NCBI GenBank assembly: GCA_963768175.1
Contig: CAVYGQ010000001.1
Span: 840,717 to 904,716, forward strand
From: Candidatus Doudnabacteria bacterium
GTDB lineage: Bacteria > Patescibacteriota > Doudnabacteria > UBA920
Direction of reading: 5' to 3'
DNA: 64,000 nucleotides
Shown: piece after piece, positions 3,602 to 61,989 of the stretch
Position numbering within the stretch: the first letter of the stretch is position 1
Layout of the letters: each line of letters starts with the position of its first letter
Notes under the pieces: model-generated
Told to the model about the DNA's origin: nothing
The model's database searches: none
Seen by the model: only the letters and a program-made list of their open reading frames with translations
Program-made: the position numbers and the translations under genes

Positions 3602-3612
3602 AAATAAGTAAT

Positions 3613-11377: not shown

Positions 11378-12154
11378 CTATTGGTGTTTCAAAAACGGTT
11401 TTAATATTGGCGCGTATAAATCTTTTTTCGGCGGAATAACCAATTTGTGATATAAATCCTTTTTGGTAAACTTAACAAATTTCGCCCCTCTTAGCACCAC
11501 CACCGGCGTTTGCTCGCCGCCTTCGCCCATTATCAGCGCTCCCAAGTCCGCCAGCGTGTCCACCAAATTGCGCTGGGTGTATTTTAATTTGCGTTTAAAA
11601 ATATCTTTTTGTCCGCGGTAATCAAACAGTGGCTTTAACCCCCAAAAGCCGATGCTTACCCCTTGCGTTCCCCATCTTAGCGGCGTGGTGCGGCTGTCCA
11701 CGGCCACGGCCGCCAGTTTTTTTGTGCCAAATTTTGTTTGGTATCTTTTGACAATTTGTTTAAGTAATAAATTAACATTCTTCGGCCAAAGAATAAAATA
11801 ACCATTGCCGTTGCTTTCATCTATGCCGGCCGAAGGTATAAGCGTGTAGTCTTTAATGGTCAAAATAATTTCCGAATCGCCAATCATGTAAGCCGGCAAG
11901 CTAAAATCGGCTTCTTTTTTTACAAGCTGGTGTTTTTGGTTGTAGCGTGCCGATTTATCCGCCGTCGCTGAAGCTTTGGCGGACAAGTCGGCCTTCTCGA
12001 TTTTCACGCATCTGCCCTGATGAATCGCCAAAATCTTGGAAGCAATCAACAAAACATCGCCTTCTTTAAGCTTAGGCAGGCGTTTGTCCAGCTCTTGCAA
12101 AATGTCGTCCTTTGGCGGCAGGAACTTGCGGGTTTTTATGGGAATGAATTGCAT
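11378..12154 (-). CDS. CofE-like (F420-0:gamma-glutamyl ligase family) protein
   Basis: IPSAGIDESN and LLIASKILAIHQG regions resemble the F420_ligase domain. The family assignment is tentative. Confidence 0.45.
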   Translation of the reverse strand: MQFIPIKTRKFLPPKDDILQELDKRLPKLKEGDVLLIASKILAIHQGRCVKIEKADLSAKASATADKSARYNQKHQLVKKEADFSLPAYMIGDSEIILTIKDYTLIPSAGIDESNGNGYFILWPKNVNLLLKQIVKRYQTKFGTKKLAAVAVDSRTTPLRWGTQGVSIGFWGLKPLFDYRGQKDIFKRKLKYTQRNLVDTLADLGALIMGEGGEQTPVVVLRGAKFVKFTKKDLYHKLVIPPKKDLYAPILKPFLKHQ

Positions 12155-13220: not shown

Positions 13221-15686
13221 TTAAATTATCGTCGCACTCGCCACTTTATCTCCCTCATCCAGCCTCATTACCCTTACGCCTTGGGTGGCGCGGCCTAATG
13301 TGGAAACTTTGTTCAGTGGCGTGCGGATGGTTTGGCCGGATTTGGAAATTATGACCAAGTCGTGCTCTTCACTGTTGTTTAAAATATGCATGCTGACAAT
13401 TTTCCCGGTCTTGGGCGTAACTTTTACGGTTTTAATGCCGCTGCCGCCGCGCTTTTGCACTTTATAATACGACGCTTCGGTTTTTTTACCCAAACCGTTT
13501 TCCGTAACCACCAGAACTTCCAGAGTTTTTACATCCACGCTTTTGCGGATAATATCCATGCTGATAATCTTGTCGTCTTTTTTCAGGCGCATGCCGGTAA
13601 CGCCGCTGGCGTTTCGGCCCATGGCCCGGACGTCCTTCTCGCTAAAGCGGATGGCTTGGCCGTTTTCCGTGGACAGCATAATTTGGTCTTCGCCACTGGA
13701 GGTTTCCACCCACTTTAATTCATCGGCGCCTTTTAGGGAAATAGCTATCATGCCGCTGCGCCGTACTTTACTGAATTCGTCGCGGCTGGTTTTTTTAATC
13801 AGTCCGTTTTTGGTGGCCATAACCAGGAATTTGGCGTTGTCTTTTTTGGAAAAAGTAAGCACGGCTTGCGAAGTCTCGCCGCTTTGCAGCTGCAGGAAAT
13901 TCACCAAAGCCTGGCCTTTGGAAACGCGCGTGCCCTCGGGTAGCTCGTAAACTTTGGTCTGGAATACCCGTCCTTTGTTGGTGAAAAAGAGAATATCGTC
14001 GTGGGTATTGGAAGAAATAAGCTTTTCCACCACGTCTTCTTCTTTTAAGGTTTGGCCGATCACGCCTTTGCCGCCGCGGCTTTGGGTTTTGTAGGTGTCC
14101 GGCGCCAGGCGCTTGACATAGCCGGATTTGGTAATGGTAATAATTACGTTACTTTCCGGAATCAGATCTTCGGCAGAGAAGCTTCCAATGGCATTTTTTA
14201 TTACTTGCGTCCGGCGTTCGTCGCCAAAGCGAGACTTCATATCTTCCACCTCACTTCTAATAATTCCCAAAATTTTCTTCTTGGATTGCAAAATACCTTC
14301 CAATTCTTCTATTAAATTCTTTTTTTCTTTTAATTCGTCGTCAATTTTTTTACGCTCCAGGCCGGCCAAAGTTTGCAGGCGCATTTCCAAAATCGCGTCC
14401 GCCTGGATGTCCGTGAGCTTGAATTTTTTGATTAAATTGACTTTGGCTTCTTCCTTGGTGGGTGATTTTTTGATGGTGTTTATAACCTCATCAATACGGT
14501 CCAGGGCTTTTTTTAAGCCTTCCAGAATGTGGGCGCGTTCTTTGGCCTTTTTGAGTTCAAATTCCGTGCGTTTGCGCACCACAATTTCGCGGTGCTGCAA
14601 ATATTTTTCCAGGACAGTTTTTAAATTCAGGACATGGGGCTCAATGCCGTCTACCAAAGCCAGCATGTTCATGTGGAAAGATTCCTGGAGTTGGGTGTAG
14701 GAAAACAGCTGGTTTAAAATTTTGTTGGGCAACCCGTCTTTTTTTATGTCTATGACAATGCGCACGCCGTCTTTGTCGCTTTCGTCGCGTACGTCGCGGA
14801 TGCCTTCTATTTTTTTATCGCGGACCAGTTCGGCAATTTTTTCAAGTAAGGTGGCTTTGTTCACGCGGTAAGGAATCTCGTGGACCAAAATTTGGTAAGC
14901 GCCGGATTTGCTTTCTGTAATTTCCGTTTTGGCGCGCATCACAATACTGCCTTTGCCCGTGGCATAGGCGTTCTTAATGGCCGCGATGTCGTAAATTATG
15001 CCGCCGGTGGGGAAGTCCGGTCCCTTAACAAATTCCATTAGGTCTTCGGTAGTGGCTTCCGGGTCGTCAATTAGTTTAACAATGGCATCGCAAATTTCGC
15101 CTAAGTTGTGGGGCGGGATGTCTGTGGCCATGCCTACGGCAATGCCGAGCGTACCGTTAAGCAACAGATTAGGCAGTTTGCCCGGCAAGACCACTGGCTC
15201 TTTGCGTGTGGCGTCATAGTTGTCGCGCCAGTCCACGGTTTCTTTATCCAAGTCTACCAACAATTCTTCGGCCAAAGCGGACATGCGGGCTTCGGTGTAA
15301 CGCATGGCCGCGGCGCCGTCGCCGTCCATGGAGCCAAAGTTCCCCTGTCCGTCTATTAGCGGATAGCGCATGGCAAACAGCTGGGCCATATGGACCATGG
15401 AGTCGTAAACCGCAATATCGCCGTGGGGATGGTACTTGCCCAACACGTCTCCGACTACGGCCGCGGATTTGCGGAATTTGACGTTGTGGCGCAGTCCCAG
15501 TTCGTGCATCACGTATAAAATGCGCCTGTGCACGGGCTTTAAGCCGTCGCGGACATCCGGCAGGGCGCGGCTGACAATTACGCTCATGGCGTAATCCAAA
15601 TACGATTCCTGCATTTCCGTCTGGATGTCGCGCTGCTTGATTTCCCCGATGTCGGTGCTAAGTTCTGCTTTGGAATCTTTAGGCAT
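13221..15686 (-). CDS. gyrA: DNA gyrase subunit A
   Basis: [27 protein letters not shown] motif with C-terminal beta-pinwheel repeats. The start is refined to the ATG at 15684-15686; the track start at 15701 is a TTG. Confidence 0.93.
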
Positions 15687-15692
15687 AAAGGT

Positions 15693-15770
15693 AATGAACA
15701 AAAATTAAAAAAATGACACAAATGAGCAAAAATGAACTGTGGTAATTTCCGTCATTTTTATTATTTTTTA
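15693..15770. repeat. AT-rich repeat AATGA(A)CAAAAATTAAAAAAATGACA with an inverted TGTCATTTTTATT arm (copy 1 of 4)
   Basis: Other copies are at 19073-19165, 42272-42368 and 54402-54440. Confidence 0.75.
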
Positions 15771-18891: not shown

Positions 18892-19072
18892 CCCCTTTTT
18901 ATCCGTCTTTGGAGATTTGGTTCAAAGGACGGAGCTTTTGTTTCTTTAAGTTTTAATTTCCGCAAAGACCTGCGCGGATAACCCTTTAATGCCCCGATAC
19001 AGCCAAGGCTAAGAGTCACCTCTAGTATACTGTTTAAGCCAGAAATTGCAAATCGGTTATCCCCCAGAGAGG

Positions 19073-19165
19073 AAATGACAAAAATGAACAAAAATTAAAA
19101 AATGACAAAAGTTATTGCAGTAGTATTTTTGTCATTTTTATTATTTATTTAATTTTTGTCATTAT
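19073..19165. repeat. AT-rich TGACAAAAAT repeat element (copy 2)
   Basis: aaatgacaaaaatgaacaaaaattaaaaaatgacaaaag...tttttgtcatttttatt. Confidence 0.75.
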
Positions 19166-21904: not shown

Positions 21905-22459
21905 TTAGAGTATCTGATGATTTTTTGACAAACTTAAACCATGCGATAACAACCAGGCCTCAACCTCTTTAGCTATTTTTTCGCTCATCCAATAACCCCT
22001 GGAAAGAGCAGCAATATCGGTTTTGGTAAGATCTTCAATAGTTTGAATGTTTGATCGTTTTGCCGTGGTATAAAAAGAGTTCGTGGCTCTAGTTCTTGAA
22101 AGCTTAATTATTGTCACTGGTTGTTTTAACAATTCTTGCTTAATATGTATCTCATTTTCTGCTATACGTTCTGCTTCCTTGTCTAATAAAGGTTTAAGTT
22201 TCCTAATCTCCGGATTAGTTTTTTCGTTTCGAGAAAGATCGCGAATAGGTTTTTCAATTTCAGCCATGGTTTCAGCTGTAATTGGATCTTCCACTTGGTT
22301 TATTCTTCTCTCTATTTCTTCGGAGCGGCGTTGAGTATTTTCAGGATTCACGAAATACCCTTTCTTATTATCATTCCCGCGAAAGCGGAAATTAGATTCC
22401 CGATCAGCTTTGGAATGACATAATGATAATAAATTATGGAATAAACCTAAAATTCTCAA
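21905..22459 (-). CDS. Hypothetical protein whose C-terminus resembles an RNA polymerase alpha-CTD-like HhH domain
   Basis: The C-terminal segment NIQTIEDLTKTDIAALSRGYWMSEKIAKEVEAWLLSHGLSL resembles an alpha-CTD. Confidence 0.4.
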   Translation of the reverse strand: MRILGLFHNLLSLCHSKADRESNFRFRGNDNKKGYFVNPENTQRRSEEIERRINQVEDPITAETMAEIEKPIRDLSRNEKTNPEIRKLKPLLDKEAERIAENEIHIKQELLKQPVTIIKLSRTRATNSFYTTAKRSNIQTIEDLTKTDIAALSRGYWMSEKIAKEVEAWLLSHGLSLSKNHQIL

Positions 22460-23924
22460 ACTGCCAAACGTCCGCGGCCGGTTTGCTGGCCGGGTTTTCT
22501 TTGAAGTAGATTTTACGATTCTTTAGGGGCGTCCAGTCAGACGGCGTGGAAATAAAGTCGCCGAGATAAGGTTTTGCAATATCCAGCACAAAATCGTGCG
22601 GCAAGTCGTCAGGCAGGCAAATACCTTTTTTCGGATTTTCAAACATCCATAGTACGGCGGCAATTACGCCTAGCGCGACCTGTAAAGTGGTGGCATTTTG
22701 GCCAGGTGCCAGCCTCCGGGCTTCCTGTATGCTTAAATCGCTCCCTGTCCACCAAGAATTATACCGATGCCCCATCAGTAGCGCGCCTAAAATGTCCGCC
22801 CCGGAAGTAATCTCATCTTCCAAAATTCTTATCTTGGACTGCATTTCGTAATTCCTGCCGCGAAGTTCGCATAAAGAAGATAGTGTTTCGTGGCACGGCA
22901 TATACGCGTAATGCACTGTCGGGCGGTAAACTGCCCTATCTCCATCCCAAACTGTTAACCTGTCGGATAACCCAAATGCTTCGCCGTGGCGAATGACCAT
23001 GCCCACAATTTCTTCGTTGGGAATCCATGACCTTACCCAGGTATTAATTCCCATTTGGGAGAGCATAATCTGATTTTTTGGCCCGTAAGGCGGAATATTA
23101 GCCAAGTCCGGTAGCCTTTGTTCGTGTGTGCCCCAACCCATCTCGGCCGGCGCGGTTCCTTCTTCCCGCAAGCCTTCCACGCTCCAGGTTCCTACAAATT
23201 CATCAACTTCTTTTGGGCGATTGGTAATTTGCGTGTCGCGCTCGCTGCAGTGGATTACTTTGATTCCCAATTTTTGTCCGAGCAAATTGAATTTGAGGTT
23301 TTTAATATAATTTTCCAGTTCTTCCCTGTCTTTGCCAGCCACTTTTTTATCTGCGATTGTTTTATTGCCGATATCAATCAATCCTTGTTTGACAAAATGG
23401 GAGATCAAACCGGGGTTTGCGCCATGGTCCACGACTGCCGTAGTGGCGTCTTTCCAGTCTTTGGACATGTCGTGCAGTTTCATTTGGCGCCAGTAAAGCG
23501 ATTTTTCAAATGGGCTGTCAGTAAATAATCCCTTAATGGAATCCCAGATTTCAACCGAAGTATTTACATACAAAACATTATGGTCGTGGCACCAGCCGAT
23601 AATATCATTAGCACCAATATTCCATGCCAAATCTATAATCAGGCCGCCCTTGTCTGTGTATTTGGCCAACTCCGGGCCTAGGTTTTCCGGCGTAATCCTG
23701 TTGCGTACAAATTTGATGCCCTTGTCCGTGAATTTTTTTAAAGCCGCTGCTTTGTCTTCAAAATCCATTACCGTGACGTTTTTTGGGTCAACCTCAATTT
23801 TTTCCAGCAGAATCGGCAGGGTGCACTGCGACACCGCGCCATAACCGATAATCAAAATTTTGCGGTCAAACTTTTTTTTTCCGCCGGAGGCGGATCCGCC
23901 TTTAGCGGACATACGTTTTTCCAT
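22434..23924 (-). CDS. hss: Homospermidine synthase / saccharopine-dehydrogenase-family enzyme
   Basis: NAD-binding N-terminus (ILIIGYGAVSQCTLPILLEK) and 496 aa. An in-frame AKGGSASGG cassette sits near the N-terminus. Confidence 0.55.
   Translation of the reverse strand: MEKRMSAKGGSASGGKKKFDRKILIIGYGAVSQCTLPILLEKIEVDPKNVTVMDFEDKAAALKKFTDKGIKFVRNRITPENLGPELAKYTDKGGLIIDLAWNIGANDIIGWCHDHNVLYVNTSVEIWDSIKGLFTDSPFEKSLYWRQMKLHDMSKDWKDATTAVVDHGANPGLISHFVKQGLIDIGNKTIADKKVAGKDREELENYIKNLKFNLLGQKLGIKVIHCSERDTQITNRPKEVDEFVGTWSVEGLREEGTAPAEMGWGTHEQRLPDLANIPPYGPKNQIMLSQMGINTWVRSWIPNEEIVGMVIRHGEAFGLSDRLTVWDGDRAVYRPTVHYAYMPCHETLSSLCELRGRNYEMQSKIRILEDEITSGADILGALLMGHRYNSWWTGSDLSIQEARRLAPGQNATTLQVALGVIAAVLWMFENPKKGICLPDDLPHDFVLDIAKPYLGDFISTPSDWTPLKNRKIYFKENPASKPAADVWQFENFRFIP
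23880..23903. repeat. 24-nt palindromic cassette AAAGGCGGATCCGCCTCCGGCGGA (in minus orientation) in frame in hss
   Basis: Identical 24-mers occur at 44773-44796 (murA) and 53990-54013 (murF). Each encodes KGGSASGG. Confidence 0.85.
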
Positions 23925-24167: not shown

Positions 24168-24244
24168 GGCGCAGTGGTGAAGTAGTCCAACACGGCGGTC
24201 TGCAAAACCGCTATCCATGGGTGCAAATCCCATCTGCGCCTCCA
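24168..24244 (+). tRNA. tRNA-Cys (anticodon GCA)
   Basis: Acceptor GGCGCAG/CTGCGCC, anticodon arm GCGGT-CTGCAAA-ACCGC, CCA encoded. Confidence 0.7.
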
Positions 24245-24247
24245 CTT

Positions 24248-24359
24248 CTTCGCTAAAGCTACGAAGTGCGAGCAACTTAGTTGGTATGCTCATTTTAATA
24301 GTTAACTGTAAATTTTAGAAGCGAAGAAGTGCCCTACGTAGCCTTGGCGAAGTAGGGCA
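24248..24359. repeat. Inverted repeat CTTCTTCGC/GCGAAGAAG plus hairpin GCCCTAC-GTAGCCTTGGCGAAG-TAGGGC (conserved-loop REP-like motif)
   Basis: Loop motif CGTAGC(C/T)TT(G/A)GCGAAG occurs 5 times in the window: at 24248, 24338, 35448, 51493 and 61948. Confidence 0.7.
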
Positions 24360-24388: not shown

Positions 24389-24473
24389 GCCCGGGTGGCG
24401 TAATTGGCAGCCGCGCTTGACTTAAGATCAAGTGCCGAAAGGCGTGCGGGTTCGAGTCCCGCCCTGGGCACCA
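24389..24473 (+). tRNA. tRNA-Leu (anticodon TAA)
   Basis: Anticodon arm CTTGA-CTTAAGA-TCAAG, a long variable arm, CCA encoded. Confidence 0.8.
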
Positions 24474-25205: not shown

Positions 25206-25616
25206 TCTTTAAATCAAACTCCTTTCTCCCCTGTCCCGATTCGCCATCTGGCGGACTATCGAGAAAGTACATTATGTTAAAGTGCGACTGTTGGACCCGT
25301 TCCTGTCCGCCAGTTGGCGGATTAAGGAACGTCAGCCGTCCCGCCAAAGCCTAGAAGGCCTTTTTGGGATACACGCTTACTTTTACCCTGTTAAATGCCG
25401 TTTTACGGCTTCTGCCTAAAAGGAAGAAATTTAACTGGGTAAACAAAAAAGTGCTAAAAAGCACCTTTACTATTTAATTATACTCTTTAAGGAGACCTTT
25501 TTCAAGGTCTTTTAGCCATTTTATCGCTCAAATAAGACAAAAAACATTATATTACTGGCAAAATAGGCAATAAAAAACCCCTTGTTTAAAAGAGATTTTT
25601 TATAAAAATTTTAGTT

Positions 25617-32440: not shown

Positions 32441-32548
32441 GACGTCATTCCGAGCGCCTGCAATATCGCGCGAGGAATCTCTTATTGGCAGTTCGTTATT
32501 TAAGAGATCCTTCACCCTTCGGATGCACTCGGGGTTCAGGATGACGCC
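32441..32548. repeat. Palindromic element of the GGCGTCATYCTGA...TCAGGATGACGCC family (copy A, intergenic, degenerate left end)
   Basis: It shares the GAGATCCTTCACCCTTCGGATGCACTCGGGGTTCAGGATGACGCC right half with copies at 43990, 54177 and 57344. Confidence 0.8.
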
Positions 32549-32618
32549 GCTAATTTGGATGTTTGAGCCTTGAAAAATGTCAGTACTTGGGGTATAATCT
32601 ATAGGCAAATTTGATAAT

Positions 32619-35205: not shown

Positions 35206-35691
35206 TTATTTTTCCTCGTGTATTTTACGTATAACTTCGTCTATATGCTGCACATATCTCGGGCTAGTGTCTAGATGGAAGCTTATTCGGGGAATGACTT
35301 TGGTGGCAAAGTGCTTGTTAACTTCGCCCTGGAGGTCGTAAATGTTTTTTCCCAAAAATGTTAAGATTTTATAGTCCAAAGATAGAGCAGTCTGAGATTT
35401 TTTATCAGCCTGCGACAAACTTTTTTTCCCTCTCCCTTCTTGCCCGCCGTAGCCTTGGCGAAGGCGGGTGGGAGAGGGTGCCCCAAGCCCGTCTTGGGGC
35501 GGGTGAGGGTCTGGGTTAAAAATAGAAATCCAAATTTTGGCGTACTTCATATCTTTGCTGGTTTCCACTTTGGTTATGGTCACCAGGCCTTTTTGCCAAT
35601 CCAAAAATTTATGCAAAACCGGCCCCAATTCGTGCTGGATTAAGGAGTTTACCTTAGCTATGCGGTTGGTGTCTTTTTTTACCGGCTTCAT
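35206..35691 (-). CDS. rbfA: Ribosome-binding factor A with an in-frame insertion of about 40 aa
   Basis: RIAKVNSLIQHELGPVL and the C-terminal KH-like part match RbfA. The middle segment NPDPHPPQDGLGAPSPTRLRQGYGGQEGRGKK is encoded by a GC-rich hairpin element. Confidence 0.75.
   Translation of the reverse strand: MKPVKKDTNRIAKVNSLIQHELGPVLHKFLDWQKGLVTITKVETSKDMKYAKIWISIFNPDPHPPQDGLGAPSPTRLRQGYGGQEGRGKKSLSQADKKSQTALSLDYKILTFLGKNIYDLQGEVNKHFATKVIPRISFHLDTSPRYVQHIDEVIRKIHEEK
35427..35516. repeat. REP-like hairpin element in frame in rbfA (conserved loop GTAGCCTTGGCGAAG)
   Basis: cccgcc-GTAGCCTTGGCGAAG-gcggg, the flanking cctctccc/gggagagg stem and a second hairpin gccccaag...cttggggc. Confidence 0.7.
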
Positions 35692-41423: not shown

Positions 41424-42266
41424 TTAGAATGTACGGTTTTTTCCCACAATCATCTTCAGCCTCTGAGGGATTATTTCCACGGTGCTGGGGAATTTGGCAA
41501 CAACGCGGCCGAGCATGGTCAAATTGGTGCCGCGCGGCTCCAAAAATTCAATTTTTTTGCATTTAATGACTGTGGTATTGGGCACCTTTTCCAGACAGCC
41601 TTCTGAAATAATGTTGCGGTATTTTAAAACCTGCATTTTATTAAGGTGCTCCATTATGAGCAGATCTAAATTGCCGTCCGTGGGGTTGGCGATTTTTTCG
41701 CTTTGGCAGGAAGTGGAACGGATGTTGGCCACCAGTCCGCCGAGCCCGTTTATGGTCACGTTGTAAGAATCATCCACCCGGATGGTAAAGCCTTTTGCCT
41801 CCGAAGAAAGCAGCTTCAGGCTTTGCCACAAAGAGGCGGTTTTGATGTTGTGGGACATTACGCCAAATTCCAGAAAGCTGATAAAATAATTGCCGGAAAT
41901 TTTGGCCAGGTCAATTTTTTCTATGCGCCTGGCGGCAATGGTTTTTACGCCCAAAAAGACGTTTTCAATGCCTAAAATTTTTGCCAAATTTGAATTTTCA
42001 TCAAACGGGATAAAACCCAAAGTAAAATCCCGCCCCTTAAGCGCCGCCAGCATTAAGTTAAAGGTATCGTCACTGCCGCAGGCCACCAAAGTATTGGTGC
42101 CTCTTTGGCTGGCCGTATCCACCAAATCCTGCACGCTGCGCAAGGGAGTTACCCTTGAAGCCTCGCCGGAAACTTTAAATTCGGCCAAAAGCCCGGAAAG
42201 CTCGGTCTGGAGCTTCTCAAATTTTTCCATGGGCAAATTGTGCTGGTCGAGGATATAGTAGTGCAC
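41424..42266 (-). CDS. Diacylglycerol-kinase catalytic-domain lipid kinase (YegS-like)
   Basis: The VACGSDDTFNLMLAAL region resembles the GGDGT motif. The start is a GTG. Confidence 0.6.
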   Translation of the reverse strand: MHYYILDQHNLPMEKFEKLQTELSGLLAEFKVSGEASRVTPLRSVQDLVDTASQRGTNTLVACGSDDTFNLMLAALKGRDFTLGFIPFDENSNLAKILGIENVFLGVKTIAARRIEKIDLAKISGNYFISFLEFGVMSHNIKTASLWQSLKLLSSEAKGFTIRVDDSYNVTINGLGGLVANIRSTSCQSEKIANPTDGNLDLLIMEHLNKMQVLKYRNIISEGCLEKVPNTTVIKCKKIEFLEPRGTNLTMLGRVVAKFPSTVEIIPQRLKMIVGKNRTF

Positions 42267-42271
42267 AAAAG

Positions 42272-42368
42272 AAATGACAAAAATTAAAAAAATAATAAAA
42301 ATGACAAAAATAAATGGGCCTATAATTTTTGCTCATTTATGCCAATTTTGTCATTTTTGCTCATTACC
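42272..42368. repeat. AT-rich TGACAAAAAT repeat element (copy 3)
   Basis: aaatgacaaaaattaaaaaaataataaaaatgacaaaaat...ttttgtcatttttgctcatt. Confidence 0.75.
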
Positions 42369-42369
42369 T

Positions 42370-42788
42370 TTACTCTTCTGGTTCAATAAGGGGTTCGGCT
42401 TTTTCCACGGGAGTTTTCTTGCCGCTGCCCCCGCTTACTCCGTTGCCGCCCATAACGCACTTGCCGGAAAATTGGGCACCGTCTTCCACCCTAAAAACCG
42501 TGCAGACAATATCCCCTAAAACTTTTGCCGTACTCTGTAATATCAAATGCCCGGATATTTTTAAGTTACCCTGTATTTCCCCGCCGACCACGGCATTGCC
42601 CGCCAAAATGTCTGCCGCAATTTTGGCCCCGGGACAACAAATACGCTCTGGCTAGTTTTGACTTTGCCGCTTACCTGGCCTTCTATTTTTATGTTGCCTT
42701 CGCTGTTTAAATCTCCTTGAATTTTAACGCTGGGGCCGACTACGGTTTCGGCCGGGCTGTTTAGGTTCTCGTCTAAGGTTTTGTCCAT
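42370..42788 (-). pseudogene. Bactofilin (DUF583), split by a 1-nt frameshift in a ggccccggg run
   Basis: The N-terminal ORF (42561-42788) ends ...KVKTSQSVFVVPGPKL. The C-terminal ORF (42370-42606) continues in another frame with ...PGAKIAADILAGNAVVGGEIQGNLKISG. Joined, they give a canonical bactofilin. Confidence 0.6.
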
Positions 42789-43989: not shown

Positions 43990-44075
43990 GGCGTCATCCT
44001 GAGCGTAGCGAAGGATCTCATTAAAGAAAGAGATTCTTCACCCTTCGGATGCTACTTCAGGTTCAGAATGACGCC
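43990..44075. repeat. Palindromic element GGCGTCATCCTGAGC...TTCAGAATGACGCC (copy B, intergenic, upstream of murA)
   Basis: Terminal inverted repeats plus an internal palindrome, GAAGGATCTC..GAGATTCTTC. Confidence 0.8.
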
Positions 44076-44094
44076 TTAGGAAAGAAAATATTAT

Positions 44095-45648
44095 ATGCAA
44101 AACCTTATAAAGGATCAGCAGAAAATCGGCCAGTTTATAGCCGAAGTCCGTGAGCTTAAAGGCTTTACCCAAAGCCAGTTTGCCAAAAGCTTAAAAACCA
44201 GCCAGTCAGCCGTAGCCAGGATGGAAAGCGGCCAGCAAAACTTAACTACAGAGATGCTGGCTAAGATTAGCGCAGTTTTGAACCATGAAATTATTACGTT
44301 GGCCGACAAGTCGGTAAATTTTAAAATAGAAGGCGGGCGGAAACTTTCGGGAAGGGTCGCGGTTAATACTTCCAAGAATGCCGCGGTGGCGCTGTTGTGC
44401 GCTTCTTTGCTTAATGAAGGTAAAACTATTTTTAAGAATGTGCCTAAAATAGAGGAAGTCTACCGGGTAATTGAAGTTTTGGTCAGTCTTGGCGTCTCGG
44501 TAAAATGGCAGGGCGCGGATGTGGAAATTTTGCCGGGCAAAAAAATTACCATAAATAAAATAGACAAAGAAGCCGCGGTTAAAACCAGAAGCGTTCTTAT
44601 GCTGCTTGGGCCTTTGGCTCATATTCTTCCCGCTTTTAACCTGCCTTTGGCCGGCGGCTGCAAACTGGGCGAACGGACCGTGAGGCCGCATTTGTTTGCT
44701 TTGGAAAAGCTTGGAGTTAAAATTCAGACCCATCATGACCATTACGCCGTAAGCTCGGCTAAAGCTCCCGCCAAAGGCGGATCCGCCTCCGGCGGAAAAA
44801 CCGCGGAGGTAGTGCTTTACGAAATGGGTGACACAGTGACGGAAAACACGCTTATGGCCGCGGCAAAAATAAACGGCGTGACCACCATCAAGCTGGCCTC
44901 TTCCAATTACATGGTGCAGGATTTATGTCATTTTTTGCAAAGTTTGGGCGTAAAAATTGAAGGCGTGGGTACCTCCACCTTAAAAGTGCATGGCAAACCG
45001 CACATTAACCAGCGTGTGGTCTTTTATTTAAGCGAAGACCCCATAGAAGCCATGCTGTTTTTGTCTTTGGCTGTCACCACAAATTCTTCCATAACCGTTG
45101 AGCGCTGCCCCATAGACTTTTTGGAGCTGGAACTGTTGAAATTGGAAAAGATGGGGTTTAAGTACCGGATTATTAAGCGTTATAAAAGCCATAACGGTAT
45201 TACCAATTTGGCAGATATTAAGACTTTCCCGTCTAAATTAATCGCGCTGGAAGAAAAAATCCACCCGTTGACGTCCTCGGCCGGAATTAATATAGATAAC
45301 CTGCCGTTTTTTGTGCCCATTGCCACCCAGGCCAAAGGCACCACGCTGATTCACGACTGGGTTTACGAAAATCGCGCTATTTACTATTTGGAATTAAATA
45401 AGCTGCGGGCCAATATAATTTTGGCCGACGCCCACCGCGTTTACATAGACGGCCCGACCGAACTTAAAGCAGGCGAAGTCATTTGTCCCCCTGCCCTGCG
45501 CCCGGCCGCGATAATTCTAATTGCGATGTTAGCCGCCAAAGGCACCTCTATTCTCCGCAACGTTTATTCCATAAACCGCGGCTATGAGAATTTGGTGCAG
45601 CGATTACAGAAGCTCGGAGCCAAGATCGAAATGATACATGGCATGTAA
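44095..45648 (+). CDS. murA: UDP-N-acetylglucosamine 1-carboxyvinyltransferase fused to an N-terminal XRE-type HTH domain
   Basis: Residues 1-65 form an HTH_3 domain (IGQFIAEVRELKGFTQSQFAKSLKTSQSAVARMESGQQNL). The MurA core follows (KLSGRVAVNTSKNAA...). An in-frame AKGGSASGG cassette is also present. Confidence 0.85.
   Translation: MQNLIKDQQKIGQFIAEVRELKGFTQSQFAKSLKTSQSAVARMESGQQNLTTEMLAKISAVLNHEIITLADKSVNFKIEGGRKLSGRVAVNTSKNAAVALLCASLLNEGKTIFKNVPKIEEVYRVIEVLVSLGVSVKWQGADVEILPGKKITINKIDKEAAVKTRSVLMLLGPLAHILPAFNLPLAGGCKLGERTVRPHLFALEKLGVKIQTHHDHYAVSSAKAPAKGGSASGGKTAEVVLYEMGDTVTENTLMAAAKINGVTTIKLASSNYMVQDLCHFLQSLGVKIEGVGTSTLKVHGKPHINQRVVFYLSEDPIEAMLFLSLAVTTNSSITVERCPIDFLELELLKLEKMGFKYRIIKRYKSHNGITNLADIKTFPSKLIALEEKIHPLTSSAGINIDNLPFFVPIATQAKGTTLIHDWVYENRAIYYLELNKLRANIILADAHRVYIDGPTELKAGEVICPPALRPAAIILIAMLAAKGTSILRNVYSINRGYENLVQRLQKLGAKIEMIHGM
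44773..44796. repeat. 24-nt palindromic cassette AAAGGCGGATCCGCCTCCGGCGGA in frame in murA
   Basis: Identical to the copies in hss and murF. Confidence 0.85.
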
Positions 45649-45713: not shown

Positions 45714-48209
45714 ATGGCGGAAACAAACAACAATTTGGGTTTATCATCAGCCGAAGCCGCTAGCAGATTAAGGCAGTACGGCTATAACGAAATTGCGGAA
45801 AGCAAAAGGCTATCCGGGCTTTTGGCTTTTTTGTTAAGGTTCCGCAATCCGCTGGTGCTGATTTTGGTCTTTGCGGCTACGATATCAGCTGTAACCGGGG
45901 ATCCCGTCAGTGCGCTGATTATCATCAGTATTGTACTGCTGTCCGTTATCTTAGATTTTTTTAATACCTACAAATCCCAAAAAGCCGCGGAAGAGCTGAT
46001 AGAAAAAGTGGAAATTACAGCCGAGGTATTGAGAGGCGGCATAGTGACTCCCCTGCCGCTGCGCTTGATTGTGCCCGGAGACGTGGTGGAACTTGAGGCC
46101 GGAGACGTAATTCCCGCAGACGGCAAAATTTTAAGCGCCAAAGATTTATTTTTGAACGAATCTTCGCTAACCGGCGAATCTTTTCCCGCGGAAAAGCAGG
46201 AAGGCTTGCCTATTTTTTTGGGAACCAACGTGGTTACCGGCACTGGCCGGATGCTGGTGGAAGTTACGGGTAAAAAAACCAAGTTCAGCAAAATCGCGGA
46301 AAGTCTGGAAGCGCCGGAAAGGCCTACGGATTTTGACCGCAGCATAAAAGATTTTAGCTACTTAATTATGAAGATAACTTTTGTCTTGGTTATCTTTATT
46401 TTTTTGGTTAACGCCATACTCAAAGGCAGCACTTATATTTTGGAGTTGTTTTTGTTTGCCGCGGCCTTGGCCGTGGGCTTGACGCCGGAGCTTTTGCCCA
46501 TGATTATTACGCTTAATTTATCCAAGGGCTCTTTGGCCATGTCCAAGCACGGCGTAATTGTAAAAAAACTATCGGCCATCCAAAACTTTGGCGCTATGGA
46601 TGTATTGTGCACCGATAAAACCGGCACGTTGACGGAAGACAGGATTGAACTGGTCAAGTACGTGGACGCCGAGGGCAAGCCGGATGAAAACATTTTTAAG
46701 TACGCTTACCTTTCCAGCAGTTTCCGCAGCGGCTTTAAGAATCCGCTGGATGTGGCTGTAAAAAATTTCAAGATGTTTGATATTGGCGGCAAATCCGCCT
46801 TCGCTGAAGCTTCGGCGGATGACTCGCTATCAAATATATTAATGGGAGTCAAAAAAATAGACGAAATCCCCTTTGATTACCGGCGCAAGCGCGATTCCAT
46901 TATCGTGAAAACTTCTCAAGGCTATGAGCTTATTTCCAAAGGCGCGCCTGAAGAAATGTTTGAGACCTGCAGTTTTTATAGCCAGATGGGTAAAAAACTC
47001 ACCCCTACTATAGCCAAAAAATTGGAAAAAGAATATCAGGCTTTAAGTGCCGACGGCTTTAGGGTTTTGGCTGTGGCCTGCAAGACGCTTCCGGAAAAAA
47101 CGGCATACGAAAAAGAAGACGAAAGGGATTTGGTTATATTGGGCTTTATTGCTTTTTTGGATCCGCCCAAAAAGAGCGTGACCGAAACCCTGCGGACTTT
47201 GGAAAATTATGGCATCGCCATAAAAGTTATTACCGGCGATAACGAAATTATTACCAAAAAAATCGCTCAGGAAATTAATTTGCCCGTTTTGGGCAGTTTG
47301 ACCGGGGCAGAGATAGAAAAATTGACCGATCGGCAGCTAGCAATAGATGCGGAGAAAACTACAGTTTTTGCGCGCGTTACGCCGGAACAAAAAAAGCGCA
47401 TTATTTTGGCTTTGCAAAAAAATAAACACGTAGTCGGGTTTATGGGCGATGGTATAAATGACGCGCCGTCGCTTAAGACCGCGGACGTGGGCATTTCGGT
47501 TAACAACGCGGTGGACGTGGCCAAGGAATCGGCCGATTTAATTTTATTGCACAAGAGTTTAAAGGAGCTGGCTTTAGGCGTTATCCAGGGCCGCAAAACT
47601 TTTGCCAATACTTTAAAGTATTTAATGATGGGTTTGAGCTCAAATTTCGGCAATATGTTTTCCATGGCCGGAGCATCCATGTTTTTTCCGTTTTTGCCCA
47701 TGCTGCCGGCCCAGATTTTGCTAAATAATCTGCTGTATGACGGCTCGCAGTTTGTCATTCCGCTGGACAATGTGGATGAGCAGGACATTGCCAGGCCACG
47801 GCAAATGAAGATCCATTTTTTGCGCAGATTTATGGTGGTTTTTGGCATTTTAAGTTCGGTGTTTGATTTTGTGACGTTTTTAGTGTTAACTTTTGTCTTC
47901 CATTATACCAACCACTACTTCCAGACCGGCTGGTTTATTACCTCTTTTGCCACGCAAATTTTAGTGGTATTTGTTATCCGCACCAAGCAGGTGCCGTTTT
48001 TCAAAAGCAAGCCGGCTAAGTCCTTAGTTATTTCCGTGTTTAGTTTTTTGGCTTTAGCCCTGCTTTTGGCCTTAGGCCCGATAAAAAATATCTTCGGCTT
48101 TGCCCCGCTTTCGCTGGCCATGGTTTTAAGCGCTTTCCTTATTACCCTGCTCTATTTAATCTGTATTGAGTTCGCCAAAAGCAAATTTTACCAATATGTT
48201 TCGGAATAA
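45714..48209 (+). CDS. Cation-transporting P-type ATPase (MgtA-like)
   Basis: DKTGTLT, TGDN and GDGINDAPSL motifs, 831 aa. Confidence 0.8.
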   Translation: MAETNNNLGLSSAEAASRLRQYGYNEIAESKRLSGLLAFLLRFRNPLVLILVFAATISAVTGDPVSALIIISIVLLSVILDFFNTYKSQKAAEELIEKVEITAEVLRGGIVTPLPLRLIVPGDVVELEAGDVIPADGKILSAKDLFLNESSLTGESFPAEKQEGLPIFLGTNVVTGTGRMLVEVTGKKTKFSKIAESLEAPERPTDFDRSIKDFSYLIMKITFVLVIFIFLVNAILKGSTYILELFLFAAALAVGLTPELLPMIITLNLSKGSLAMSKHGVIVKKLSAIQNFGAMDVLCTDKTGTLTEDRIELVKYVDAEGKPDENIFKYAYLSSSFRSGFKNPLDVAVKNFKMFDIGGKSAFAEASADDSLSNILMGVKKIDEIPFDYRRKRDSIIVKTSQGYELISKGAPEEMFETCSFYSQMGKKLTPTIAKKLEKEYQALSADGFRVLAVACKTLPEKTAYEKEDERDLVILGFIAFLDPPKKSVTETLRTLENYGIAIKVITGDNEIITKKIAQEINLPVLGSLTGAEIEKLTDRQLAIDAEKTTVFARVTPEQKKRIILALQKNKHVVGFMGDGINDAPSLKTADVGISVNNAVDVAKESADLILLHKSLKELALGVIQGRKTFANTLKYLMMGLSSNFGNMFSMAGASMFFPFLPMLPAQILLNNLLYDGSQFVIPLDNVDEQDIARPRQMKIHFLRRFMVVFGILSSVFDFVTFLVLTFVFHYTNHYFQTGWFITSFATQILVVFVIRTKQVPFFKSKPAKSLVISVFSFLALALLLALGPIKNIFGFAPLSLAMVLSAFLITLLYLICIEFAKSKFYQYVSE

Positions 48210-48284: not shown

Positions 48285-48524
48285 TTATTTTTTTATCAGT
48301 TTTAACTTTTTTATCCGTGGCCACTTTTTTATTTCCGCCTCGCGCTTAAGCGCCTTGCCCCAGCTCTTGAATTTTTCATGGTAAACAATTTTTCCGCCGC
48401 CGTGGGCGATTACATATTTGGAACCTTTACCGGAATTGTGTTTTTGCTCCCGCTTTTTTAAATCCTTGGCGCTGCCGGAATATAGCGTGCCGTCTTTGCA
48501 TTTTAGGATGTAGAAATAGAACAT
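48285..48524 (-). CDS. GIY-YIG nuclease-family small protein (UPF0213-like)
   Basis: FYFYILKCKDGTLYSGSAKDLKKREQKH. Confidence 0.65.
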   Translation of the reverse strand: MFYFYILKCKDGTLYSGSAKDLKKREQKHNSGKGSKYVIAHGGGKIVYHEKFKSWGKALKREAEIKKWPRIKKLKLIKK

Positions 48525-48639: not shown

Positions 48640-48713
48640 GGGCCTATGGTCCAGTGGTAAGACACGGCATTCGCATTGCCGGGACGCGAGTTCGATTCTC
48701 GCTAGGTCCACCA
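48640..48713 (+). tRNA. tRNA-Ala (anticodon CGC)
   Basis: G3:U70 pair, anticodon arm CGGCA-TTCGCAT-TGCCG, CCA encoded. Confidence 0.75.
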
Positions 48714-48743
48714 GCGTTTAGTGACGGGGCGAGTTGCTGAGGC

Positions 48744-48771
48744 GGGAGTTCGATTCTCCCTGGGTCCACCA
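48744..48771 (+). other. tRNA-like 3'-half fragment (T-arm, acceptor and CCA)
   Basis: gggagttcgattctccctgggtccacca. The inverted repeat ccccgtcactaaa/tttagtgacgggg brackets the intact tRNA. Confidence 0.5.
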
Positions 48772-51424: not shown

Positions 51425-51485
51425 TGATAAAATAAGCTAAATCTAATAAAATATCTAAGCAACATTTTGTTGATCGTTTAAGGTT

Positions 51486-51515
51486 TGCCCTACGTAGCCT
51501 TGGCGAAGTAAGGGC
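51486..51515. repeat. REP-like hairpin GCCCTAC-GTAGCCTTGGCGAAGTA-AGGGC abutting the tRNA-Ala(GGC) 5' end
   Basis: The same loop motif as at 24338 and 35448. Confidence 0.7.
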
Positions 51516-52819: not shown

Positions 52820-54403
52820 ATGGACTTGTTTGTTCCAAAATTTATCCAATACCAATTATACCTGCTCCAGCTGGAAAATTATGAGCTGGGAAGGTATTGG
52901 AAATTGCTTATAAAAAAGGGAGTTTTCCCTAAAAAAAGCCAACCTTTGCGCAAAGAGCTGGTCTGGACCGCTAAAGCTCGGGCGTTAATGCTTATGGCTG
53001 TGGCCCTGCATGGTTTGGTGGTCGTTTTGGTTGGGCTTATGGTTTTAACTTTAAAGCCGGGCATAGATAACTTTTTTACCACAATAATTTTGGCGGTATT
53101 AATTTTGTTGCCGTTTTATTTTGTTTTTTTCAGTCTGGCTTTGTTAATCCTTAAGCCTTTGGACACTCTGGTAAAACAAAGCCTTGTGGCTAAAGCCAAA
53201 ACCAAGCTGGCTGGATTGCCTGATGTCAAGATAATCGGCGTTGCCGGCAGTTACGGCAAAACTACAATGAAGGAAGTGTTGAGGGCAGTGCTAAGTGCTA
53301 AGTTCAAAGTGCTAAGTACGCCGGAGAGCATAAACACGCCGGTGGGGATTGCCAGATGGATTATAAATAAAATAACGGACGAAACCCAAATTCTGATTGT
53401 AGAAATGGGGGAGCATTATGAGAAAGACGTTAAAGAAATTTGCGATATAGCAAAACCCGACATCGCGGTGGTTACCGGCATTAACGAATCCCACTTGGAG
53501 CGGATGAAAAAAATGGATACGGTTATTGCCACAATTTTTGAAATCGTGAGTAACGCCCAGCCCGGCGCGGCTATTGTGCTAAACGGCGATGATCGCAGGG
53601 TTATGGAGAATTATAAAAAATTTGTCTGGCCAGACCATCGGCTGGAATTTTTTACAAAAAATCCCGGCAGTGAAAAGTGTAAAGTGAAAAGTGCAAAGTT
53701 TAACACAGACAAGCTGTGTTGGAATTTAGAGATTGATGATCTTGGCTCGGTAGAACTGGATTTACTTGGGGAATACGCGTTGGGCGACGTTGACGCGGCC
53801 GTGAAAATTGCCAAAAGTTTGGGTATGAGCAATGAGCAAATTATCGCGGGGATCAAAAATATCAAGCCCGTGGAGCACAGGCTCCAGCCGATAAAGTCTG
53901 CCACGAATGTTTTGGTAATAGACGACAGTTACAACGGCAATTCCGACGGAGTAGTGGAAGCCATAAAAGTTTTGTCGCGCTTTTCCGCCAAAGGCGGATC
54001 CGCCTCCGGCGGAGAAGGCCGCCGGAAGATTTATATCACTCCCGGGCTGGTGGAAATAGGCAAAAGTTCCGCCGATATTCATCGCAGTATTGGCAAACAG
54101 CTGGCGGACGTTGCGGATGTGGTTATTTTGATAAAAAATAGCGCGACGGGGTTTATTGAAGAGGGAATCCTCTTAGGGCGTCATTCTGACCCTGAGCGGA
54201 GCGAAGGGGAAGAATCTCAAACTAAGGATAAAGAGATCCTTCGTCCCTCGGATGCACTCGGGGCTCAGGATGACGCCGCTGGTAAGAGACCAAGAATTAT
54301 CTGGTTTAATTCCGCCTTGGAAGCGTACGCGGGGCTAAAAGACATTTTAAAACCCGGGGATGTAATTTTGTTTCAGAACGATTGGGGAGACCAGTATTTG
54401 TAA
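52820..54403 (+). CDS. murF: UDP-N-acetylmuramoyl-tripeptide--D-alanyl-D-alanine ligase with an N-terminal TM extension and two in-frame repeat insertions
   Basis: Mur ligase ATP-binding motif GVAGSYGKTTMKE. Two in-frame inserts are present: the KGGSASGG cassette at 53990 and a palindromic element of about 100 nt at 54177-54277. Confidence 0.85.
   Translation: MDLFVPKFIQYQLYLLQLENYELGRYWKLLIKKGVFPKKSQPLRKELVWTAKARALMLMAVALHGLVVVLVGLMVLTLKPGIDNFFTTIILAVLILLPFYFVFFSLALLILKPLDTLVKQSLVAKAKTKLAGLPDVKIIGVAGSYGKTTMKEVLRAVLSAKFKVLSTPESINTPVGIARWIINKITDETQILIVEMGEHYEKDVKEICDIAKPDIAVVTGINESHLERMKKMDTVIATIFEIVSNAQPGAAIVLNGDDRRVMENYKKFVWPDHRLEFFTKNPGSEKCKVKSAKFNTDKLCWNLEIDDLGSVELDLLGEYALGDVDAAVKIAKSLGMSNEQIIAGIKNIKPVEHRLQPIKSATNVLVIDDSYNGNSDGVVEAIKVLSRFSAKGGSASGGEGRRKIYITPGLVEIGKSSADIHRSIGKQLADVADVVILIKNSATGFIEEGILLGRHSDPERSEGEESQTKDKEILRPSDALGAQDDAAGKRPRIIWFNSALEAYAGLKDILKPGDVILFQNDWGDQYL
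53990..54013. repeat. 24-nt palindromic cassette AAAGGCGGATCCGCCTCCGGCGGA in frame in murF
   Basis: Identical to the copies in hss and murA. Confidence 0.85.
54177..54277. repeat. Palindromic element GGCGTCATTCTGA...CTCAGGATGACGCC (copy C), inserted in frame near the murF C-terminus
   Basis: It encodes GRHSDPERSEGEESQTKDKEILRPSDALGAQDDAA and keeps the reading frame. Confidence 0.85.
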
Positions 54404-54440
54404 TGACAAAAATTAAAAAAATGACATAATTGACAAAAAT
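54402..54440. repeat. AT-rich TGACAAAAAT repeat (copy 4, short) between murF and alr
   Basis: taatgacaaaaattaaaaaaatgacataattgacaaaaatt. Confidence 0.7.
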
Positions 54441-54442
54441 TC

Positions 54443-55588
54443 ATGGGGACAATCGGAAAAATTTTTAATAAGATAGTATCACCAAAAATTAACTATCAAC
54501 CGCTTATAGAAGTGAGGATTTTTAAAGATGCCTTGCTGCATAATTTACACGTTTTCCAAGAAAAATATCCGAGCCTTGAGTTTGCCCCAGTGATAAAAAG
54601 CAACGCTTACGGACACGGTATGGTACAGGTGGCAAAAATTTTTGACAGCAAACCCAAAGCTTTTTTTATGGTGGACTCATTTTATGAGGCTTTGGTGTTA
54701 AGGCGCGCCGGAATTAAATCTAAAATTTTAATGCTGGGTTTTAACCGGATTGAGCAATTGATTAACCCCAAATTAAAAAATTGTTCCTCGGCGATTATTG
54801 ATTTCTCCACTTTGCAGGAAGTGGTGGCAAAATTAAAAAAGCCGGCGATCTTTCATCTCAAGATTGATACGGGTATGCACCGGCAGGGACTGTGGGGGGA
54901 AGAAGTAAATAAGGCAATTGCGTTAATCAAGTCTAACCCAAACTTTAATTTGGAGGGCTTATGCAGCCATTTGGCGGATGCCGACGGGGCTGGGCAGGAT
55001 TTTACCAAACAGCAGATTAGACTGTGGAATCAAGTCGTGGAAAAATTCAAACAAAACTTTCCCTCCATTAAATATTTCCATTTAGCCAATACCGCCGGGA
55101 CTTTTTATACCAACGAAATTACGGCCAACGTGGCGCGCATCGGCATCGGGCTGTATGGGTTAAATAATTCACAGTTTGAAAAGTTGGACTTAAAACCGGC
55201 TTTGGAAATGGCCTCTATTGTCACTTCCGTAAAAACTATTCCGGCTGGGGAGAAAATCGGTTACAATATAACTTATGAGGCGCCGAAAGAAACAAAAATC
55301 GCCACCGTACCGGCGGGATTCAACGAAGGCGTGGACCGCAGGCTTTCAAATAAAGGATTTTACCAAATTAAGGGGCAAAACTGTCCTTTGCGGGGCAAGG
55401 TGAGCATGAACATAAGCAGCGTGGAAGTAACCAGTGTCCCTGGAGTTAAAGTGGGGGATGAGGTGGTAATTATAAGCCGAAATCCGAGCGATAAAAATTC
55501 GGTGGAAAATATTGCCAAAATGTGCGACACGGTACATTACGAAATTCTGGTTCATATACCTTCTATATTAAGAAGAATAATAGTGTAG
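54443..55588 (+). CDS. alr: Alanine racemase
   Basis: PLP-lysine motif VIKSNAYGHG, 381 aa. Confidence 0.88.
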   Translation: MGTIGKIFNKIVSPKINYQPLIEVRIFKDALLHNLHVFQEKYPSLEFAPVIKSNAYGHGMVQVAKIFDSKPKAFFMVDSFYEALVLRRAGIKSKILMLGFNRIEQLINPKLKNCSSAIIDFSTLQEVVAKLKKPAIFHLKIDTGMHRQGLWGEEVNKAIALIKSNPNFNLEGLCSHLADADGAGQDFTKQQIRLWNQVVEKFKQNFPSIKYFHLANTAGTFYTNEITANVARIGIGLYGLNNSQFEKLDLKPALEMASIVTSVKTIPAGEKIGYNITYEAPKETKIATVPAGFNEGVDRRLSNKGFYQIKGQNCPLRGKVSMNISSVEVTSVPGVKVGDEVVIISRNPSDKNSVENIAKMCDTVHYEILVHIPSILRRIIV

Positions 55589-61936: not shown

Positions 61937-61947
61937 GAGTAGTGAAT

Positions 61948-61971
61948 CCGCCTTCGCTAAAGCTACGGCGG
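61948..61971. repeat. REP-like hairpin CCGCC-TTCGCTAAAGCTAC-GGCGG (loop motif in reverse orientation)
   Basis: The loop is the reverse complement of CGTAGCYTTRGCGAA. Confidence 0.65.
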
Positions 61972-61989
61972 ACAAGTAGGATAAAACAC

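Follow-up and report, generated by a model that had tools for sequence, protein, structure and literature searches.

The window analysed in this work, a stretch of 64,000 nt from the genome of a Candidatus Doudnabacteria bacterium (Candidate Phyla Radiation, CPR), to which all positions refer, contains a family of small hairpins, one of which lies in frame within rbfA (35206..35691, minus strand, 161 aa, Pfam PF02033). These hairpins are probably copies of a 30-nt, non-autonomous mobile DNA element, comparable to the repetitive extragenic palindromes (REP) and to the Rickettsia palindromic elements (RPE). The initial annotation had described five REP-like hairpins sharing a conserved loop of 15 nt, possibly recognised by a RAYT or IS200/IS605 transposase. 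Its reading proves right in kind, and a mobile REP-like hairpin, recognised through a conserved unpaired core, is partly supported, the enzyme being putative. Dispersed occurrence, presence or absence of exactly 30 nt and nesting at a fixed site agree with such a description, whereas the terminal GTAG or CGTC of known REPs is missing.

All five hairpin sites originally annotated carry the exact 16-mer CGTAGCYTTRGCGAAG, located at 24248 and 61952 on the minus strand and at 24337, 35448 and 51493 on the plus strand. A sixth site, with 2 mismatches, is found at 46799 (minus strand). Dinucleotide shuffles gave a mean of 0.2 matches, and none out of 100 reached six or more. The whole window was also scanned, without filters, by using a covariance model built from 37 element copies. 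Seven copies, rather than five, were obtained, scoring between 38 and 53 bits, while the next match scored 16.6 bits. The two added copies, at 46792-46823 and 11956-11987 (both minus strand), were also tied to the 61946 copy by a repeat finder, as members of one family.

In order, the unit comprises 5'-CTTG, the first strand of a 5-bp stem whose sequence is free, C, GTA, GC-Y-TT-R-GC, GAA, G and the complementary stem. Every copy folds into an outer stem of 5-6 bp, a C-G closing pair, a 3x3 internal loop (5'-GTA/5'-GAA), a G-C and a C-G pair and a YTTR cap. The supposed plain loop is in fact structured, being made of the GTA/GAA internal loop and of an apex where Y pairs with R. When both of these positions were left free in a scan of GTDB genomes, they covaried (CG 73, TA 48, CA 5, TG 1; Fisher p = 5e-28). 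The five outer pairs occur in many Watson-Crick combinations, with 75 cells showing changes on both sides, a value reached by none of 500 shuffles; the variable stems noticed earlier around a constant core do covary freely. Since the alignment used for the model had been selected for pairing, an independent measure was added on bare 16-mer matches (n = 133, from the window, the first relatives and IMG/VR contigs): all five flanking positions can pair in 45 of them, against a chance expectation below 1%.

The unpaired 5' tail, CTTG, is conserved (C 75, T 61, T 91 and G 94 out of 121), and GTAG is located within the internal loop, not at the end of the element. Nearly all model matches are full-length and free of indels, tail included, which sets the length of the unit at 30 nt. 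This corresponds to exactly 10 codons, with 4 to 5 of the 6 reading frames open. In variant copies the triplets are swapped or degraded (GAA/GTA, GAA/GAA, GTA/GTA) or the apical stem is longer. The element does not resemble an intrinsic (Rho-independent) terminator: no T-run was seen 3' of the hairpin in the window copies inspected, copies are found within genes, and both orientations occur. A search against Rfam 15 returned only tRNAs above the gathering thresholds, and nothing relevant at E <= 10 on a 71-nt slice.

Evidence of mobility comes from rbfA. Here the element CTTGCCCGCCGTAGCCTTGGCGAAGGCGGG (35439..35468, plus strand, 53.2 bits) is read from the minus strand and encodes TRLRQGYGGQ. 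RbfA homologues, several of which are named Candidatus Doudnabacteria and so place the window in a CPR bacterium, range between 116 and 177 aa, and their length varies at one point, from WISIF(NGD) to D-KIL. The window protein contains an insert of about 45 aa (approximately residues 60-104), between the strand at 50-58 and the helix at 101-115, and the insert peptide includes a stretch spanning PSPTRLRQGYGGQEGR. Only 10 residues of the insert belong to the element, which had been credited with about 40; the other ~35 derive from older palindromic modules. By aligning the rbfA genes, exactly 30 nt (coding strand CCCGCCTTCGCCAAGGCTACGGCGGGCAAG) were found in the window and in L003, and none in L001 and L005, where L-numbers designate contigs from other organisms, compared with the window. 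Insertion boundaries are unambiguous and the junctions show no duplication. The element occupies the identical nucleotide in L003, L004, L326 and L327, whereas the site is cleanly empty in three contigs from two lineages (L001/L002 and L005). It was placed in the 3-nt loop (TT^T) of an older host hairpin (35428..35478), whose arms, CCCTCTCCC (35428-35436) and GGGAGAGGG (35470-35478), encode PSP..GRG; in L001 and L005 the empty site reads CCCTCTCCC-A(A/G)R-GGGAGAGGG. The comparison of RbfA orthologs, proposed in the initial annotation as a check, shows no conservation of this segment apart from the hairpin itself. The insert also contains another GC-rich hairpin, unrelated to the first, at 35480..35500 (GCCCCAAG-cccgt-CTTGGGGC), which encodes PPQDGLGA and differs in sequence among relatives.

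Within the more distant relatives L326 and L327, the element has the same stem as in the window, with a few point changes, some of them in the core. The neighbouring DHH gene groups the window with L003 (91%) and then with L005 (about 80-83%), leaving L327 and L326 outside (66-75%). The rbfA gene closest to that of the window is the one of L001 (90% nucleotide identity), yet it is empty. The grouping obtained for the DHH gene, together with the empty site of L005, implies either that the element was precisely lost at least once or twice or that it was repeatedly inserted at one nucleotide. No direct repeat flanks the rbfA site to explain a deletion by slippage. In the AlphaFold model, residues 63-102 form a loop with a predicted local distance difference test (pLDDT) score below 50, in a structure of modest overall quality (mean pLDDT 58.7); the insert is predicted to be disordered, and the copy would be a passenger.

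A tree based on the gene upstream of rbfA was dropped, because relatives carry differing TrmB paralogues. Among close relatives this gene is non-orthologous, in most cases being a different paralogue of the TrmB family, with 25-33% identity between types and 85-89% within a type. The window and L326 alone share one type (85%), and the upstream gene of L001/L002 has no similarity to the others, a switch which points to local gene replacement. In L005 (ENA contig_26783), infB, pyrD and a TrmB gene are each broken into several ORFs (open reading frames), as is typical of uncorrected long-read errors, so that indels at this locus should be taken with care.

The rbfA copy is in frame, as first annotated, and it is not alone: three of the seven window copies are intragenic and in frame, the others being found in a P-type ATPase gene and in an F420-ligase-like gene. 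The ATPase gene (45714-48209, plus strand) contains a diverged copy at 46794..46823 (minus strand, core GAAGCTTCAGCGAA, 38.1 bits), encoding SAFAEASADD. Metagenome homologues, 35-50% identical over the segment, show a gap of about 19 aa at this copy; the relatives recovered in the metagenome scan were homologues at 44-55% identity only. The ligase-like gene (11378-12154, minus strand) contains another diverged copy at 11958..11987 (minus strand, core AAAGCTTCAGCGAC, 38.5 bits), nested at the edge of a loop, as GCCGA(11949-11953)-TTTA-element-TCGGC(11988-11992). Uninterrupted hairpins paralogous to this host, GCCGATTTATCGGC, are found within 3609-3665 and 55581-55637. These two segments are copies, 89% identical, of a 57-nt intergenic repeat formed by two hairpins within GTAGC/GCTAC, and a partial third copy, at 11941-11995, is the one hosting the nested element.

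Differences in the presence of the element were found at further sites. The infB gene of L003 contains an additional 10-aa copy, WR[PSSAKATEGE]AE, absent from infB of the window, and intergenic copies of L005 and L326 have no counterpart in the window. Two related phage contigs, L036 and L070, differ by exactly 30 nt beside an older copy, without duplication, and by a further 32 nt in a 5' leader. The insertion point falls at unpaired nucleotides, 0-2 nt past the 5' arm of a hairpin, as in rbfA (TT^T) and in the ligase gene (GCCGA^TAAA, top-strand orientation). The element also inserts into itself: in 5 of 7 such cases the two copies are oriented alike and the host is broken at position 12|13 (CCG-N^AGC), including a multi-layer stack in L199 and the independent cases of L009/L241, L050 and L175. 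The flanks of copies in general show the same weak consensus, CCGG^...^AGCC. The L199 stack, at positions 1-130 of that contig, is made of at least 5 layers. Tandem arrays with the element inside a longer unit were observed in L239 (80-450, unit of about 87 nt) and L236 (5000-5250, unit of 51 nt).

Orientation and mismatches were used to distinguish a DNA from an RNA form of the hairpin. According to crude gene calls, made solely for loci below 56% GC, 13 intragenic copies are in forward and 14 in reverse orientation to transcription, and copies located between co-directional genes are 9 and 10, respectively. In this wider sample, 27 intragenic copies compare with 23 assignable intergenic ones, and about one third of the copies lie within coding sequence. 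On the CTTG...GTAGC strand, mismatches at unconstrained pairs were 16 G·T versus 4 A·C, and those at the outermost (Y-R) pair 8 versus 2. Stems with a single mismatch gave 31 G·T and 10 A·C, with ratios of 10:4 and 12:4 when separated by transcription orientation. Since this bias is independent of the direction of transcription, it points to a folded single DNA strand rather than an mRNA structure. This is indirect evidence that the active form would be a strand-specific, folded single-strand DNA, the kind of substrate used by HUH/Y1 enzymes.

The remaining window copies are located as follows. The canonical copy CTTGTCCGCCGTAGCTTTAGCGAAGGCGGA (61947..61976, minus strand, 53.0 bits) falls between genes, at a distance of 14 nt upstream from a hicB-like ORF (61990-62235). 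Directly upstream of it the heptamer TAGTGCT is tandemly repeated six times (about 61893-61935), and an inverted partner of this array is found 48 kb away, at 13193-13219. The copy at 24243..24272 (minus strand, stem CACTT/AAGTG, tail CTCG, 43.4 bits) overlaps by 2 nt the CCA end of tRNA-Cys (24168-24244). It is arranged tail to tail, 55 nt apart, with the copy at 24328..24357 (plus strand, stem CCCTA/TAGGG, tail AGTG, 43.8 bits), located about 30 nt upstream of tRNA-Leu (24389-24473); this loose pair (24243 minus, 24328 plus) is the only doublet in the window. The copy at 51484..51513 (plus strand, stem CCCTA/TAAGG, tail TTTG, 42.2 bits) has a 3' arm which, extended to 51515, covers the first 4 nt of tRNA-Ala(ggc), starting at 51512. 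The contacts of three copies with tRNA genes, already pointed out in the initial annotation, are thus correct. The remark is further supported by a larger set from many phyla, in which 8 out of 125 copies have a tRNA gene less than 100 nt away, about five-fold the 1.6 expected, and at most 6 were obtained in 200 randomisations; this enrichment may simply result from the element preferring DNA that is non-coding and rich in hairpins.

An orphan tRNA 3' half, including T arm, acceptor strand and CCA, was observed at 48734-48771, 20 nt past tRNA-Ala(cgc) (48640-48713). It is 84% identical to the 3' end of the same tRNA, adjoins a 79-aa GIY-YIG ORF (48285-48524) and has the appearance of a scar left where DNA integrated into the tRNA gene.

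The motif recurs widely in other organisms. The GTDB species collection, searched with the pattern YCCNN-core-NNGGR, returned at least 120 matches. More than 15 phyla are represented among the matches listed, which come from host DNA of 31% to 76% GC and include many Patescibacteria lineages, Planctomycetota, Acidobacteriota, Bacteroidota, Pseudomonadota, Nitrospirota, Elusimicrobiota, Dependentiae, Bdellovibrionota, Lentisphaerota and Verrucomicrobiota, with the cultured Cerasicoccus arenae, as well as others. The 726 kb surrounding 100 seeds contained 135 model matches, corresponding to about 35 extra copies, and phage-like contigs from IMG/VR contain up to eight copies each. No copy was found in 1.015 Mb of control metagenome contigs, picked as carriers of ATPase homologues and hence for a reason unrelated to the element. 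A BLAST search with a 31-mer gave chance-level partial matches or nothing in cultured phages, PLSDB plasmids and 5,426 E. coli genomes. Such a wide yet patchy occurrence fits a horizontally spreading mobile DNA.

A full-text literature search, extended to the encoded peptides, found no description of this family. The REP super-families GTAG and CGTC are defined by a conserved terminal tetranucleotide, and intragenic REPs are on record, for example in Opitutus terrae, with sequences other than that of the element (PMC3733652). The systems formed by REPs or REPINs and RAYTs in E. coli, Pseudomonas and Stenotrophomonas (SMAG) share with it an imperfect palindrome of 20-40 nt in many copies, a conserved unpaired tetranucleotide beside the stem, apparent activity as one folded DNA strand and an occasional location inside ORFs. 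They differ in the terminal tag, GTAG or CGTC instead of CTTG with GTAG inside the internal loop, and in having a RAYT (Y1/HUH) gene, typically flanked by REPs (REPtron), none of which was found with the element, either in the window or among loci totalling about 2 Mb. Moreover, REPs are usually specific to a species or genus, lie mostly outside genes and downstream of them, and frequently form inverted doublets, whereas the element has one core in more than 15 phyla, is intragenic in about one third of the cases, rarely forms doublets and has a length fixed at 30 nt.

Rickettsia palindromic elements, reportedly described by Ogata et al. in 2000, are palindromic selfish DNA inserted in frame in genes, essential ones included, where the added peptide is tolerated. 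This they share with the element, but they measure about 100-150 bp and are confined to Rickettsia, while the element adds exactly 10 aa with its 30 nt, across phyla. In-frame REPs and RPEs are known precedents; what is unusual is the fixed length of 30 nt (10 codons), the site-specific self-nesting and the spread over more than 15 phyla. The IS200/IS605 family and its miniature derivatives, the palindrome-associated transposable elements (PATEs), transpose as single strands by 'peel and paste'. Exact ends without target duplication, possible precise excision, an imperfect hairpin with unpaired bases and strand specificity are common features, and the short sequence between cleavage point and hairpin foot could correspond to CTTG. 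The differences are the distinct left and right subterminal hairpins, where the element has a single one, a defined left target of 4-5 nt, where the element shows only a weak left-flank preference (CCGR^), and TnpA, not detected with the element in the searched loci. MITEs, which are miniature transposable elements of the inverted-repeat type, such as Correia/NEMIS and Nezha, have terminal inverted repeats and target duplications (PMC10969869). Like the element they are non-autonomous, multi-copy and sometimes intragenic; it lacks their target-site duplication and DDE-type inverted-repeat ends, and is 3 to 10 times smaller. Further candidates were rejected: IS91-type targeting of CTTG, as CTTG belongs to the insert and not to the target; integron attC, given the insufficient length of the element and its lack of a GTT box; the d(GCGAAGC) mini-hairpin, whose sequence does not fit; and K-turn or sarcin-ricin motifs, the loop of the element being a symmetric 3x3.

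Exact ends, lack of duplication, a single imperfect hairpin with a tetranucleotide, strand specificity, targets located in loops and probable precise excision are best accommodated by HUH/Y1 single-strand chemistry, and the foremost candidate is a putative HUH/Y1 enzyme, similar in kind to those of IS200/IS605 and RAYT. This fit concerns the mode of working, not membership of that family. According to the proposed mechanism, the top strand would fold as single-stranded DNA, for example at a replication fork. A strand-transferase acting in trans would read the internal loop (G·A / T-A / A·G) together with the CTTG tail, cut exactly at both ends and paste the unit into the loops of other folded DNA; the same enzyme might also excise it precisely. 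An intragenic copy would afterwards drift as ordinary coding sequence. With 10 codons and 4 to 5 of 6 frames open, insertion into the surface loop of a protein would be tolerated, as in the case of RbfA, of IF-2, of the P-type ATPase and of the F420-ligase-like protein.

Several results weigh against this mobile-element explanation. No recognisable transposase is encoded in the 64-kb window, where the only nuclease-like small ORF corresponds to the GIY-YIG protein. Neither a RAYT nor an IS200/IS605 TnpA was found by phmmer and ORF clustering in about 2 Mb of element-bearing loci of other organisms; three Y1 queries (IS200-, YafM- and IS608-like) matched nothing in these loci or in the window, and their single weak match fell in a control locus without the element. 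ORFs in or near 193 element-bearing loci were clustered by blastp and phmmer, and no linked family emerged: recurrent neighbours were only generic (ABC, ankyrin, sigma-70) or shared phage structural genes. Among pairs of copies bracketing one ORF, no transposase-like ORF was present. The lack of a linked transposase is, however, expected if the element is non-autonomous and depends in trans on a gene present in a single copy. The 16-nt core is identical in phyla of 31% to 76% GC, unlike REP/RAYT pairs, which differ from species to species, and a very conserved enzyme or frequent horizontal spread is needed to account for this. The window copies are split 3 to 4 between the strands, though GC skew is mostly positive and cumulative skew rises across the window. 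Flanking sequences yield only a weak target consensus, CCGR^...^AGCC. Finally, precise excision at rbfA is deduced from one neighbouring gene and short contigs, and could be mimicked by recombination between lineages.

Among the alternatives, we regard as improbable that no dedicated transposase exists and that copies spread by templated repair, template-switching between GC-rich hairpins or gene conversion, with a housekeeping topoisomerase or structure-specific nuclease cutting and joining the strands. The searches made did fail to find a transposase, the element is present in very small CPR genomes, and the targets, too, are hairpins, whose G+C-rich arms are similar; a universal enzyme would also make one core in many phyla easier to understand. 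Against this, the unit has the same exact 30-nt ends, unpaired CTTG included, in unrelated targets without shared microhomology, and the patchy occurrence, with 0 copies in the 1 Mb of control, is unlike that of a universal host process. Somewhat less credit is given to functional RNA elements under selection, such as signals for transcript end or processing, mRNA stabilisers or the site of an RNA-binding protein, the rbfA copy being accidental. The GUA/GAA internal loop with its CUUG-type cap is reminiscent of a protein platform of the loop-E kind, compensatory changes preserve the structure, and wobbles of the G·U type are favoured. The proximity to tRNA genes (three of seven copies in the window, 8 of 125 against 1.6 in the larger set) and the position of the phage L107 copies between co-directional structural genes would suit an RNA as well. 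Yet orientation is random with respect to transcription, the wobble bias follows the strand of the element and not the transcribed one, and about one third of the copies fall in coding sequence. An exact presence or absence of 30 nt in essential genes and self-nesting are unexpected for a cis-regulatory RNA, and neither a T-run nor an Rfam match was found.

It is very unlikely that the hairpins are DNA sites for a nucleoid or topology protein, kept for chromosome organisation. Binding of gyrase and integration host factor (IHF) has been proposed for the bacterial interspersed mosaic elements (BIMEs) of E. coli, and the element is likewise dispersed, indifferent to orientation and multi-copy, with a conserved core. 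Many copies, however, are found in coding regions and phage genomes, gains and losses separate close relatives, the strand-asymmetric wobble argues for a single strand and not a duplex, and most bacteria have no element. Chance similarity, or an artefact of assembly or adapters, has nothing in its favour apart from the shortness of the motif, and is effectively refuted: none of 100 shuffles reaches the observed count, stems vary with compensation, and independent assemblies from JGI, ENA and NCBI agree on this rbfA codon as the site of the copy, while differing by point changes.

A bolder version of the mobile-element reading can be put forward only tentatively, and we hold it distinctly less probable than the general one. 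The hairpin might be a 'nano-transposon' of 30 nt with a pan-bacterial range, to date the smallest mobile unit that defines itself. Its internal loop and CTTG tail would be read by an enzyme that is widely conserved but not yet tied to transposition, perhaps a strand-transferase for single-strand DNA, either housekeeping or carried by phages, and not a classical RAYT. It would move precisely in and out of hairpin loops and, with its ten codons free of stops, act as a reversible cassette of 10 residues in essential proteins, both in CPR bacteria and in many other phyla.

If the hairpins are mobile, small palindromic mobile DNA would reach beyond the well-studied Proteobacteria, with one family spanning ultra-small CPR bacteria, Acidobacteriota, Verrucomicrobiota, Planctomycetota, Bacteroidota and uncultured phages. 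The element would account for odd peptides in metagenomic predictions, such as ...SAFAKATADK..., ...RLRQGYGGQ... and ...RSFSEGG..., and explain an inflated apparent length variation of essential proteins; it could be masked in gene calling and homology searches. Alleles with and without the element, differing by exact ends, would offer a clean system for finding the enzyme, itself of interest as a minimal, sequence-programmed activity of single-strand DNA insertion, and lineage-specific insertions could serve as markers for tracking strains of CPR bacteria.

Other small repeats were observed in the same window. The hairpin at 25302-25323, CCTG-TCCGCC-AGTT-GGCGGA, has a tail and stem like those of the element, with a 4-nt loop instead of the conserved core, and a GTTCC/GGAAC stem encloses it; this hairpin may represent either a relative without the core or a precursor. 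In a second family of hairpins the ends are constant (GAGATCC...AGGATGAC) and the inner stem and loop vary; it has sites at 32502-32551, 44028-44077, 54231-54280 and about 57400-57456. One of its members is in frame in the GTPase domain of L003 IF-2 (EGIPRSARDDF), where the window has no insert. A double mini-hairpin, CCGCC-AAA-GGCGG-A-TCCGCC-TCC-GGCGGA, occurs at 23876-23913, 44768-44800 and 53980-54017, with 94-97% identity. All three copies lie inside ORFs (22434-23924, minus strand; 44095-45648 and 52820-54403, plus strand) and encode ...AKGGSASGG.... Finally, an AT-rich repeat based on AATGACAAAAATTAAAAAAATGACA is found in both orientations at 15686-15759, 19065-19164, 42264-42372 and 54393-54445, with arms up to 98% complementary between loci, and may be a promoter or operator motif.

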